Part shown: positions 7,462 through 19,634 of the stretch, in pieces | Numbering within the stretch: position 1 is the first letter of the stretch | How the letters are laid out: each line of letters opens with the position of its first letter | Assembly: GCA_000992165.1 (NCBI GenBank) | Contig: LBTS01000026.1 | Coordinates: 1 to 38,657 of the forward strand | DNA length: 38,657 nucleotides | DNA from: Candidatus Moranbacteria bacterium GW2011_GWC2_37_8 | GTDB lineage: Bacteria > Patescibacteriota > Minisyncoccia > Moranbacterales > GWC2-37-73 | Direction: 5' to 3' | The notes under the pieces: generated by a model | Told to the model about the DNA's origin: nothing | Database searches by the model: none | Seen by the model: only the letters and a program-made list of their open reading frames with translations | Made by a program: the position numbers and the translations under genes

Positions 7462-8943
7462 ATGTCATTTTTTGAATCACACCCTTTTCTTGCTCCGCAT
7501 GAAATTCCAAATTCCAAACCTATTGAAAAAGCTTCGGAAAAAGAAGCTTCTCTTAATGCAGTTAAGATTGAAAAAGAAAATCCCACTGAAAAAACAGCGG
7601 CAGTTTTTCAGCCTTTCGACAGAAGAATAAACGCCGCAAAATTCAATGCGTCTGGATTTGCCAAATATATAGAAATATTACCAGAACCAGGAGAAGAAAA
7701 TGCCGCAAAAACAAATGTAATTTCAGCCAAACAACTACCGCTAAGATCTTTTGAAATACAAAATCATACAACTGATTTCAAAAATCATCCCGCCATCAAA
7801 GAAAGTGAGAAACTATACGAAGCTCATATTGCAAGAGAAAAAGCCGAAAAGAATTTGAAACTTTTCAAGTCCAGGGACATTGATGAGATAATTTCTTTTT
7901 TAAATAACACTGAAAATGAAGATTTGGAATTTCAAAAAGAAATTAAACAAACAAAAACAAACTATGCAGAACAACTTGCTTCAGCAACTTTCCTTGATTC
8001 TAAAGATTGGAAAATACTAACAGGACTCAGACTTTTCAATATGGAAACTTTTGAGCATTCTATAGGAACATACCTGATAGCGAAAAATAAGATTAAGGAA
8101 CGGCTGACTGAAATCGGCATCGAAATTCAGCATGAAGGCGTACGATTAGAACAATTCTATAGAGCCTGTCTTTTTCATGACATAGGTAAAATGGCAATTC
8201 CTGATTTCGTACTAAGTAAAAAGGCAACCAATCTTGATTGGGTTACTGGCTTTATGACGCTAGACGAAGAAGAACGGGTTGCAATTTTAGTCGAAAAAGA
8301 TCTTCCAATTCCTAATGATATTATTTACGGTACACCTCAGGACATGACGAATTATCTTGAAAAAGAAAGAATCAGGGCTATAGATTTCGTACCAGCCAAG
8401 ACATTATTTAATCCTGAAGAAGTGCATGTATTGAAAGATATCTATCCGGAAATGGCAGAGAATGATTCATTAAAGTCATTCTTACGTATTCATGAAAAAA
8501 AATCAGAGGAAATACTCCAAGGACTTGGGTTTATACTTGAAGCATTTCTCGCCGGAAACCACCATAATTACAAGCATGCTGATAAAAAATTAGGAGAAAA
8601 ACCTGCAACATTATCAGCTTTACATATCAGCATTGAAATCGCATCAACAATTCTGCACTTGGCAGATATTCAGCAAGCACTAGACAGTAACAGATCATAT
8701 CACAGCAAACATAACACATTGAGAATAATGGCTTTTCTTGTTGATGACGCAAAAAACGAAATTATTGATTCAAAATTAACAGCTCGCTGGATTAAAGATG
8801 AAATGTTAAAGATAACACCGGAAGAATTAAATGAAATCAGAAATATGCATTCGACCAACACCAATGACAAGGATTTAAAAATGCGACACGAAGACCTTAT
8901 GGCAATTGAAAATTTCCTTGAGAAAAATTTGCAGCAGCTATAA
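7462..8943 (+). CDS. HD-superfamily protein (degenerate HD-GYP-like) with an unknown N-terminal half
   Basis: 493 aa. LFHDIGKMAIPD (the HDxGK form typical of HD-GYP), later AGNHHNYKH. The first ~200 aa have no recognisable motif. Confidence 0.6.
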   Translation: MSFFESHPFLAPHEIPNSKPIEKASEKEASLNAVKIEKENPTEKTAAVFQPFDRRINAAKFNASGFAKYIEILPEPGEENAAKTNVISAKQLPLRSFEIQNHTTDFKNHPAIKESEKLYEAHIAREKAEKNLKLFKSRDIDEIISFLNNTENEDLEFQKEIKQTKTNYAEQLASATFLDSKDWKILTGLRLFNMETFEHSIGTYLIAKNKIKERLTEIGIEIQHEGVRLEQFYRACLFHDIGKMAIPDFVLSKKATNLDWVTGFMTLDEEERVAILVEKDLPIPNDIIYGTPQDMTNYLEKERIRAIDFVPAKTLFNPEEVHVLKDIYPEMAENDSLKSFLRIHEKKSEEILQGLGFILEAFLAGNHHNYKHADKKLGEKPATLSALHISIEIASTILHLADIQQALDSNRSYHSKHNTLRIMAFLVDDAKNEIIDSKLTARWIKDEMLKITPEELNEIRNMHSTNTNDKDLKMRHEDLMAIENFLEKNLQQL

Positions 8944-9023: not shown

Positions 9024-9303
9024 GACGGTCCGGTTAGATTCGAACTAACGTTCCATACTCTCAAACGAAAGTGCCTTGACTAGTAACAACATCTCCCCAG
9101 TCAATGCTTTTCCGTATCACCCTTACTACTATTATTACTCGGTCGCACAAAAAAATATTTCAGAAACAATCTATCAAAAGAAAAAGACATGCGCAATTTC
9201 TGCGTATGCCTTTCATATATGGGCGGGATGAGTGGGGTTGGAACTGAGAATCCCCAGTAAATCAATCTTGCGATCACATCCCGATATTCAATGATATCAA
9301 TAT
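9024..9303 (-). ncRNA. Unclassified structured RNA with a tRNA-like T-arm at its 3' end (tmRNA-like features, class not established)
   Basis: No ORF. Own promoter (9310-9337) and terminator (8990-9013). 5' domain is ~50% GC, closed by CGGGATG(9283-9277)/CATCCCG(9230-9224) and followed by C-CCA. Inner GATC-GCAA-GATT and TGGGG/CCCCA hairpins. 3' GTTAG-TTCGAAT-CTAAC at 9049-9033. Confidence 0.5.
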
Positions 9304-9309
9304 TTAAAG

Positions 9310-9337
9310 ATTATATAGCTTCATTATTATTCGTCAA
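9310..9337 (-). promoter_or_regulatory. Promoter TTGACG-16-TATAAT for the downstream RNA
   Basis: Minus strand reads caacTTGACGaataataatgaagctaTATAATc. The -35 overlaps the last codons and stop of CDS 9327-9743. Confidence 0.55.
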
Positions 9338-9743
9338 GTTGCTTCCGTAATATTGAGGATTTATATTTTTCTGGTTCGTAAGCCTCAAGCCTGATAATCT
9401 TTGTCCTATCAAGCCCAAGAGCATCTAGCTTCTGTCGAAGCTCTGGAACCGATTGTTTCTGATCATACCCAAGACAAATCACATCCGGTTTAAAATCCCT
9501 TATCGCACTATACCTATCATCTAAACTTCCAGGAAAAACTTCGTTAGCTAAACCACTTTTTTTAATAGCATTAATTCTTTCCGTTTCAGAATATCTTGGC
9601 AAACGACCCTTAACTTTCAGCACTGTTGCATTTCTAGCCACGATCACACGCAAAAAATCCCCATGCTTGCGAGCCTGTTTCAGAAAGTCTCTGTGCCCTT
9701 CGTGAAAAATATCAAATGTCCCAAAAACCAAAACCTTAGTCAT
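9327..9743 (-). CDS. Cytidylyltransferase-like nucleotidyltransferase (RibL/TagD-like)
   Basis: MTKVLVFGTFDIFHEGH carries the HxGH signature. The ATG at 9743 is preferred over the TTG at 9776 used by the track. Confidence 0.8.
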   Translation of the reverse strand: MTKVLVFGTFDIFHEGHRDFLKQARKHGDFLRVIVARNATVLKVKGRLPRYSETERINAIKKSGLANEVFPGSLDDRYSAIRDFKPDVICLGYDQKQSVPELRQKLDALGLDRTKIIRLEAYEPEKYKSSILRKQLDE

Positions 9744-9829
9744 CCCGCAGTAGAAATTCAGATGGTCTTCGACCAATAAATTTCTAGATAAAAATAATTA
9801 TTACCACTTACTGATTTATATTCTTTTTG

Positions 9830-11365: not shown

Positions 11366-11802
11366 TCATACCAAACAATTTCGAGCCCAGGATTTTTTCC
11401 CCATTCTTCTTCTGAAATTTTTCCAGCAGTAAAATCTTCCGTACGCTTTGCCAGTAAGTTCAGTTCATTTTTTGTGACCCATTTATATTGCTTTGTTTCC
11501 TCTTCACTTCTTTTGACTTCACCAGCAACTTCAACTTCAAAAATCTGCCAGTAATGCCAAGTACCGTCAATTCTTCTGCATGGATTTTCTTTGCGACCTT
11601 CTGTTAATAATTTTAAAGATTTTGTTTGCAAACCCACCTCTTCCTCCAATTCTTTTTTGGCAGTGAATTCAAAGTCATCGCCATCACAATGTCCAGCTGG
11701 CGGCGCATATGCAAATGGAAATTTTGCACGCTCAATCAAAAGTAATTTCTCACCTTTCCAAACCAACATTCCAACACATTTATGATCACAAATCTTTGCC
11801 AT
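11338..11802 (-). CDS. NUDIX hydrolase
   Basis: PAGHCDGDDFEFTAKKELEEEVGL Nudix box. 154 aa. Confidence 0.85.
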   Translation of the reverse strand: MAKICDHKCVGMLVWKGEKLLLIERAKFPFAYAPPAGHCDGDDFEFTAKKELEEEVGLQTKSLKLLTEGRKENPCRRIDGTWHYWQIFEVEVAGEVKRSEEETKQYKWVTKNELNLLAKRTEDFTAGKISEEEWGKNPGLEIVWYEWMKELKII

Positions 11803-19553: not shown

Positions 19554-19626
19554 GGGCACATAGCTCAGTTGGTAGAGCAGCGGCCTTTTAAGCCGATGGT
19601 CGGGGGTTCGAATCCCTCTGTGCCCA
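19554..19626 (+). tRNA. tRNA-Lys (anticodon UUU), CCA not encoded
   Basis: Manual cloverleaf. Acceptor GGGCACA/TGTGCCC, D-arm GCTC-AGTTGGTA-GAGC, anticodon loop CTTTTAA, T-arm GGGGG-TTCGAAT-CCCTC, discriminator A. Confidence 0.92.
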
Positions 19627-19634
19627 CTAGATAA

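Follow-up and report, generated by a model that had tools for sequence, protein, structure and literature searches.

Two probable tandem tRNA-derived genes in place of a single ~280-nucleotide RNA in a Moranbacteria-like bacterium

The 38.7-kb window examined in our study was the whole 38,657-nucleotide (nt) stretch of contig LBTS01000026.1, and the locus of interest was present on its minus strand at 9024–9337. The first-pass annotation had described this locus as a single RNA of about 280 nt that belonged to no recognisable class. In our study, we found that the reported RNA probably represents two separate tandem tRNA-derived genes, both on the minus strand, in a Moranbacteria-like bacterium of the candidate phyla radiation (CPR). 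On this reading, the first gene (unit 1) is a relic of the tRNA-Phe type and the second gene (unit 2) is a copy, deleted by 36 nt, of a conserved non-decoding tRNA-shaped RNA. The motifs listed earlier for the locus, namely the promoter, the 7-base-pair (bp) helix with C-CCA, the hairpins, the T arm, the CGGACCG strand, and the terminator, were all present at their positions; their assignment to one molecule did not hold. The window contained 36% G+C and tightly packed genes, and its nearest named relatives were metagenome-assembled genomes of Candidatus Moraniibacteriota/Moranbacteria and Parcubacteria.

The syntenic loci of the relatives, labelled L002–L039, were gathered in three ways: via the convergent HD-domain protein, via homologues of the upstream cytidylyltransferase (FAD-synthase-like) protein, and with a DNA pattern for the T arm and the 3′ end. 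The scan of metagenomes with the pattern returned 11 loci, of which six were family members (L012, L015, L017, L018, L020, and L022) and five were chance matches in coding DNA. In viral contigs the unit 2 motif had no match, and the unit 1 motif had three matches, all by chance in high-GC coding DNA.

Both units were found downstream of the cytidylyltransferase gene (9327–9776), the stop codon of which was overlapped by the unit 1 promoter. Unit 1 extended from 9337 to 9173 and unit 2 from 9163 to 8988, both on the minus strand. In the related loci each unit possessed its own promoter and its own terminator, and an internal terminator followed by a second conserved promoter was present between the units. 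A conserved (T)TGAAAT, a spacer of about 17 nt and TGTAATAAT/TGTAGTAT were found upstream of unit 2 in all relatives, including the loci without unit 1; the window copy contained CTGAAA (9163–9158, minus) and TAATAAT (9137–9131, minus) at this place. The two halves were also found independently of each other. Unit 2 was present without unit 1 in L002, L003, L010, L012, L015, L022/L026, L023, L025, and L037, and unit 1 was confined to the window's own species (L004–L006), L007–L009/L017, L029, and L039. In L039 only unit 1 was seen, and the contig stopped about 150 nt past the unit 1 terminator. Given the separate terminators and the independent occurrence of the halves, the locus therefore contains two transcription units. 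When the whole 282 nt was folded as one molecule, the fold was no better than that of shuffled sequence (z = −0.41).

The alignment of 13 distinct full-length unit 2 genes was analysed with RNAalifold and explicit pair counting. The intact unit 2 was found to range from about 130 to 145 nt and contained a 7-bp acceptor stem, a 4-bp D stem, a 5-bp T stem, U8, A14, and a UUCGAAU T loop. Pair 1-72 was U·G in 8 genes, U-A in 3 and C-G in 2. Two pairs of the T stem covaried, G18-U55 and G19-C56 were invariant, and the Levitt pair 15-48 was G-C in 12 genes and A-U in L022, which is again a covarying change. The T arm noted in the window is thus a true tRNA-type T arm. The acceptor stem contained U/C1, G2-C71, G3-C70, and U4-A69, followed by a discriminator that was mostly U; to our knowledge it fits no aminoacylation identity set. 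CCA was not encoded, and the same was found in the tRNA-Lys (UUU) of the window (19554–19627, plus strand), in which A73 was followed by CUAG.

The site of the anticodon loop was occupied by a rod of 65–75 nt, in which three helices continued the anticodon stem. Along the rod, helix Ia (7 bp) was followed by a 6-nt bulge and helix Ib, and an internal loop separated helix Ib from a distal helix of 7 bp with a variable tip; the distal helix is the hairpin that was earlier listed with 8 bp. The bulge was present on the 5′ strand with no nucleotide opposite and read GGUGAU in most genes, GGUGGA in two, and GUUGAU in one. The paired cells of the alignment were 97.5%, and 13 base pairs contained changes on both sides. 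None of 500 shuffles matched the observed pairing values, and when the 3′ partners were slid at most 47% of the cells were paired. The tRNA core of the intact unit 2 is under purifying selection.

The Rfam tRNA model (RF00005, gathering score 29) matched L025 with 45.2 bits and L037 with 37.2 bits, with 60–73 nt inserted at the anticodon loop; L004 and L029 were not matched by it. Rfam families other than tRNA gave no match in the window region, the intact allele or the relatives beyond terminator-like noise, and in the region itself nothing was found at the gathering score, nor at E ≤ 10 apart from such noise. No tmRNA (transfer-messenger RNA), Y RNA or other known family therefore explains the region. 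The literature searched on tRNA introns and tRNA-like RNAs in CPR bacteria contained no description of such an RNA. The unit 2 family is thus a well-supported and apparently undescribed variant of tRNA-like RNA. The earlier suggestion of a tRNA mimic or something new came close for the 3′ gene, which has no matching Rfam class; it did not apply to the whole RNA, and Y RNA was not matched.

Inspection by eye found no G-A partner strand for a kink-turn or C/D box in unit 2, and no covariation with the discriminator base that would accompany a T-box-like UGGN/NCCA pairing. A possible pairing between the bulge and the unit 1 tail was rejected, as it comprised only 5 bp and unit 1 was absent from most loci. 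Variants of the gene were also observed. The L007 gene (1535–1709), and likewise those of L008, L009, and L017, contained an additional structured insertion of about 45 nt in the D loop after G19 (CCAGCCTCGACTCACGGAGACAACTGTTTGTCGACGCTAGGCGGG), which is a second insertion site in the gene. The gene of L024 (640–770, minus) was inverted relative to the cytidylyltransferase gene and contained C1-G72 and a G discriminator, following a local rearrangement.

The window copy of unit 2 differed from the intact genes by one deletion. Three independent assemblies, represented by the loci L004 (NCBI LBVG01000001.1), L005 (JGI 3300025011), and L006 (ENA ERZ27254726), encoded the identical cytidylyltransferase protein. 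Apart from 36 extra nucleotides, their identity with the window was 100.000% over 5.3 kb (L004), 3.0 kb (L005), and 1.05 kb (L006); the intact unit 2 gene of LBVG01000001.1 was located around 11440–11575. The junction of the deletion was found at 9123/9122 (minus) with AG microhomology, and the missing segment was TAGCGGTTCGTAGCTTAGCGGTAGAGCGGCTCTCAG. It comprised 3 nt of the leader, the acceptor 5′ strand CGGUUCG, U8, A9, the D arm GCUU-AGCGGUA-GAGC, and the 5′ strand of helix Ia. The first-pass annotation had reported that no 5′ strand complementary to CGGACCG could be found. This was correct for the window, and the complement CGGUUCG was present in L004–L006; CGGACCG is unpaired in the window because the 36-nt deletion removed its partner.

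The remnant of unit 2 extended from 9121 to 9025 on the minus strand. It began with the bulge GGUGAU (9121–9116), followed by the 5′ strand of helix Ib (9115–9108) and the distal helix, formed by UUGACUGG (9104–9097) and CUAGUCAA (9083–9076). The 3′ strands of helix Ib (about 9073–9065) and helix Ia (about 9064–9058), the T arm GUUAG-UUCGAAU-CUAAC (9049–9033), the acceptor 3′ strand CGGACCG (9032–9026), and the discriminator U9025 came next, followed by a hairpin and a U run. The terminator (AAAAAAGGCAUUUUAAAAUGUCUUUUUU, 9015–8988) was palindromic and can, as predicted from its sequence, also serve the convergent HD-domain gene at 7462–8943; an equivalent hairpin and U run was found behind the unit 2 gene in every relative. 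The covariance model R1, built from the alignment of the 13 genes, scored the window copy at 63.5 bits, whereas the intact genes scored 119–154 bits, and the Rfam tRNA model did not match the window copy. The window copy would be unable to form the acceptor stem or the D stem and hence a tRNA core, and it is most likely inactive.

Unit 1 began with the promoter TTGACG, a 16-nt spacer and TATAAT (9337–9310, minus), matching 11 of 12 consensus positions, and a similar arrangement (TTGACG/TTGACT...TATAAT) was found in L007 and L039. Its body (9283–9220, minus) was closed by the acceptor strands CGGGAUG (9283–9277) and CAUCCCG (9230–9224), followed by C9223 and CCA (9222–9220). This pattern of a 7-bp helix followed by C-CCA occurred once in the window, against none expected in shuffles. 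The body contained the hairpin GAUC-GCAA-GAUU (9275–9264) and a second hairpin with two alternative pairings, UGGGG/CCCCA (9256–9252 / 9237–9233) or ACUGGG-GAUU-CUCAGU (9258–9243), all on the minus strand. The 5′ strand of the T stem was gone, and the D arm and the anticodon arm were replaced by the two hairpins. The intrinsic terminator, GGCAUACGC-AGAAAU-UGCGCAUGUC followed by UUUUUCUUUU (9212–9173, minus), consisted of a hairpin and a U run, and a hairpin and U run homologous to GGCAUACGC..GCGCAUGUC-UUUUUCUUUU was found in L007, L029, and L039.

The origin of unit 1 was indicated by L039, the cytidylyltransferase of which was 79% identical to that of the window. At the same position in L039, a TTGACG..TATAAT promoter and the same terminator bracketed a full cloverleaf tRNA-Phe (GAA) at 876–1003, with the sequence CGGGAUG-UG-GCGC-AGUCUGGUA-GCGC-A-CUUGC-AU[51 nt]GAAGA-GCAAG-AGGUC-GGUGG-UUCAAAU-CCACU-CAUCCCG-A-CCA. 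ARAGORN called this gene tRNA-Phe (GAA) with an intron of 51 nt, and the cloverleaf was perfect once the insertion was removed in silico. Unit 1 and the L039 gene had in common the acceptor stem, a remnant of the 3′ T-stem strand (CCCCACU in unit 1, CCACU in L039), NCCA, and the terminator. The unit 1 of L007 retained the T stem GGUGG/CCACU and folded as a four-way junction; that of L029 kept the acceptor helix by compensatory changes (CGGGGUG/UACCCCG) together with C-CCA, and its interior was different. The comparison indicates that the CCA-tailed mini-helix of the first-pass annotation is a true acceptor stem that survives, by descent, from a former tRNA gene. Unit 1 of the window is most likely a transcribed relic, which would give at best a CCA-tailed minihelix; a relic is favoured because the T stem is broken and the fold is unremarkable (z = −0.68).

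The L039 insertion was present between positions 33 and 34, with an ambiguous junction where AU is repeated on both sides, and it paired with the anticodon (UUCAUAA/UUAUGAA). By inspection, its minimum-energy fold contained no bulge-helix-bulge motif, and the gene was not matched by the Rfam tRNA model. A group I intron was rejected for it, as 51 nt is too small. The insertion may be a bacterial tRNA intron of an unusual kind. NCCA was encoded in unit 1 (9220–9223, minus) and in its L039 tRNA-Phe orthologue, and not in the tRNA-Lys of the window.

Several points weigh against the reading of two tandem tRNA-derived genes as given above. Homologues of unit 1 number only four and align poorly in their interiors, so that a remodelled functional RNA has to be set against a relic; for the window we favour the relic. 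The window copy of unit 2 may be either a null allele or an assembly variant, as the 36-nt gap may be either biological or an artefact. What is proposed about processing and function is drawn from the conserved tRNA core. A spliced product of unit 2 is a minority alternative: removal, with ambiguous end-points, of columns 42–101 of the alignment leaves the loop (G/U)U-GAU-RC, in which position 33 is U and position 37 a purine in all 13 genes and the anticodon is GAU in 11 of them and GGA in the other two. That loop sits on an abnormally long stem of 8 bp, displaced from the D stem.

Splicing is also the basis of the rival explanation that survives best, in which unit 2 and the L039 tRNA-Phe are both decoding tRNAs that carry a new short (50–75 nt) bacterial intron, not of group I, removed by protein machinery. 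In its favour, genes interrupted at the anticodon loop are recognised by the Rfam tRNA model and by ARAGORN when introns are permitted, the exons of L039 form a perfect tRNA-Phe, the L039 insertion pairs with the anticodon in the manner of tRNA introns, and excision of columns 42–101 leaves a 7-nt loop with U33 and a purine at 37 in all genes. ARAGORN called all 13 unit 2 genes tRNA when introns were allowed. However, the calls gave 11 different anticodons, for eight amino acids (Thr, Val, Gly, Asp, Ile, Asn, Pro, and Arg), and the 8-bp stem offset from the D stem is not a decoding geometry. When all excision end-points were searched exhaustively for a paired 5-bp stem carrying a 7-nt loop in which position 33 is U and position 37 a purine, no canonically placed stem with such a loop was found in the 13 genes; the loop left by removal of columns 42–101 was the only solution. 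In the canonical register the apparent anticodon varied among the orthologues (GUU in 7, GUC in 4, GCU in 1, and GUG in 1) with a U at 37, and its positions fell within helices Ia and Ib. By inspection, the consensus of unit 2 contained no bulge-helix-bulge motif; only the single 6-nt bulge with 0 nt opposite was present. The supposed intron contained the best-conserved sequence of unit 2, and the literature searched on CPR tRNA introns reported none of this kind. We regard this explanation as unlikely. As there is no anticodon loop in tRNA geometry, unit 2 could therefore not decode, and the intact gene is treated here as encoding a non-decoding tRNA-shaped RNA. The GUU/GUC register may be a fossil of an anticodon of the Asn/Asp type; that would fit the U1 at the 5′ end, as in tRNA-Asn and tRNA-Gln.

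A second rival holds that both units are unselected debris of a tRNA cluster scarred by the repeated integration and excision of mobile elements. The 36-nt deletion of the window copy and the unconserved interior of unit 1 would agree with it, as would the duplicated and inverted copies of the 3′ end that lie beside the unit 2 gene in relatives and resemble attachment (att) site scars. More distant relatives also lacked the genes: in L033–L036 neither the RNA gene nor the HD-domain protein was present between the cytidylyltransferase gene and serS. Against debris stand the 13 compensatory pairs of unit 2, its covarying tertiary pair, its invariant bulge motif, and its conserved promoter and terminator. 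This conservation spans species in which the flanking protein is only about 70–85% identical. In unit 1, the closing helix and NCCA were kept in L029 through compensatory changes. We consider it quite improbable that both units are debris.

The view that the locus encodes one tmRNA of about 280 nt, running from promoter to terminator with a CCA-tailed 5′ piece, a tag open reading frame and a tRNA-like 3′ end, was prompted by the T arm, the short GCA-initiated frame, the size, and the NCCA behind a 7-bp helix, and it has next to no chance of being right. The only ARAGORN call in the window was the tRNA-Lys at 19554–19627, its tmRNA mode found nothing in the window or in 14 related loci, and the Rfam tmRNA families, two-piece forms included, gave no match even at E ≤ 10. 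The alanine-initiated frame of 11 codons (9209–9171), read earlier as a tag, is the unit 1 terminator hairpin with its U run and is conserved as structure and not as codons. The five in-frame stops behind it (9137–9123) are the −10 box and start region of unit 2, and this promoter was found upstream of the gene in every relative. Each half is found without the other, pair 3-70 was G-C in 13 of 13 intact unit 2 genes and in unit 1, so that the absence of G3-U70 noted earlier stands, and in its intact form the 3′ gene includes both a genuine D stem and an acceptor 5′ strand of its own. No split-tRNA partner, in the form of a 5′ acceptor strand elsewhere, was found when the window was searched.

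In some relatives a further element was found after the unit 2 gene and its terminator, namely in L002 (5620–5300, minus), L029 (about 2285–2450), L037 (about 2690–2860), L025 (about 1655–1740), and L012 (minus strand, just 3′ of the gene). It began with the T loop and 3′ end of the gene copied in inverted orientation, e.g., (GT)CCGGTTGGATTCGAAC, and in L037 this inverted copy followed the local T-arm sequence (CTGGACTCGAAC vs GTTCGAGTCCAG). The body of the element was about 150 nt, conserved and structured, with the hairpins UUUC-AGCA-GAAA and GAAUGC..GCAUUC and with an enclosing helix that covaried (GGGCAGC/GCUGCCC vs AGUCUGA/UCAGACU). It also contained UGAUG(C/A)GGAA, which resembles the bulge region of the unit 2 gene. 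The element ended in a direct repeat of the last ~15–20 nt of the gene and a second terminator in L002, L029, L037, and L012, and in L025 nothing was present beyond the inverted copy and the beginning of the body. The element was absent from the window. Possible readings are a scar of att-type integration, a small mobile element or a further RNA gene.

The convergent gene at 7462–8943 (plus strand) encoded a protein of 493 amino acids in which Pfam and NCBIfam found only an HD/HDIG domain. At E ≤ 1e-10 it had 28 homologues, which form a small family confined to this clade, and the gene adjoined unit 2 in at least 8 of 13 loci. The AlphaFold model had a pLDDT (predicted local distance difference test) of 77, and the best fold match was the HD phosphodiesterase domain of PgpH (E = 0.12); a sequence search of the PDB yielded no relative. 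The domain, PDB, family and fold searches thus gave no link to RNA for this protein as a partner of unit 2. The 5′ end of a bacterial 16S rRNA gene was present at 1–92 of the window (minus), running off its start (Rfam RF00177, 70.6 bits).

The architecture of unit 2 was compared with that of known systems. In Archaea and eukaryotes, introns in the anticodon loop are removed by a splicing endonuclease, and the hallmark of the archaeal type is two 3-nt bulges, 4 bp apart, at the exon-intron junctions. Intron-containing tRNA genes of these groups resemble unit 2 in their acceptor, D, and T arms, in the tens of nucleotides at the anticodon loop that pair with the loop region, and in being called tRNA by intron-allowing tools. 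Unlike them, unit 2 has a bacterial host, no bulge-helix-bulge by inspection, no conserved anticodon, and an insertion that is its best-conserved part. The tRNA-like domain of tmRNA (SsrA) is likewise non-decoding and has an acceptor and T-arm module on a long helix that replaces the anticodon arm. Unit 2 differs from it in its true 4-bp D stem, in G3-C70 instead of G3·U70, in the lack of pseudoknots and of a tag frame, in its length of only 130–145 nt, and in being missed by the tmRNA models of ARAGORN and Rfam.

YrlA is a bacterial Y RNA that Chen et al. in 2014 reportedly described as a tRNA mimic bound by Ro/Rsr. Its T and D arms mimic tRNA and a long bulged helix is present at the site of the anticodon stem, as in unit 2. 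YrlA is permuted, however, ending in the long helix with its acceptor-like stem closed by a loop, whereas unit 2 ends at the acceptor stem and its rod is closed by a hairpin. The engineered tRNA-scaffold RNAs of Ponchon and Dardel are said to have the anticodon stem-loop exchanged for another structured RNA. In these the tRNA body gives processing and stability, as it might in unit 2; they are artificial, whereas unit 2 occurs in nature, is conserved, and is confined to its lineage. In Bacteria, group I introns also interrupt the anticodon loop of tRNA genes (tRNA-Leu, tRNA-fMet, and others). The core of a group I intron (P3–P9) comprises about 200 nt or more, and the insertions found here, of 51–75 nt, are too small for it and gave no Rfam intron match. 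In architecture, unit 2 is thus intermediate between the tmRNA tRNA-like domain and a pre-tRNA that bears an intron, and the RNA may work most like a tRNA-scaffolded RNA.

With its full tRNA core and without an encoded CCA, the intact unit 2 RNA would be matured by the tRNA pathway, with RNase P cleavage, trimming of the 3′ end, and addition of CCA by the CCA-adding enzyme. Its tRNA body may act as a scaffold for processing and stability, and the GGUGAU bulge with the rod may form a docking surface for a protein or another RNA. More broadly, we put forward as a tentative proposal, which we hold to be possible but short of probable, that CPR bacteria of the Moranbacteria type carry short structured insertions in tRNA genes that are unrelated to group I introns. 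Within this proposal, the less likely option is that the intact unit 2 is spliced and would represent the first bacterial tRNA intron removed by proteins. The more likely option is that it is a natural tRNA-scaffold RNA with tRNA-like processing and CCA addition, perhaps aminoacylated, and with the GGUGAU bulge on its rod in place of an anticodon, which would constitute a new family of tRNA-like noncoding RNA. A second example would then be the L039 tRNA-Phe gene, in which a 51-nt insertion separates perfectly intact exons.

The mystery RNA of the window is, by the evidence above, the sum of a relic and a deletion allele, which is ordinary, and no new tmRNA is involved. The intact 3′ gene of the relatives defines a conserved tRNA-shaped RNA that has no matching Rfam class and no report in the literature searched. 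Standard bacterial annotation probably misses unit 2, because ARAGORN detects it only when introns are allowed. If the RNA is spliced, it would mean that protein-dependent splicing of tRNA occurs in Bacteria; if it is not spliced, it would provide a natural case, from very reduced genomes, in which a tRNA body is the scaffold for a different RNA function. CPR bacteria are known for insertions in their rRNA genes, and either outcome bears on how they handle insertions in the genes of stable RNAs.

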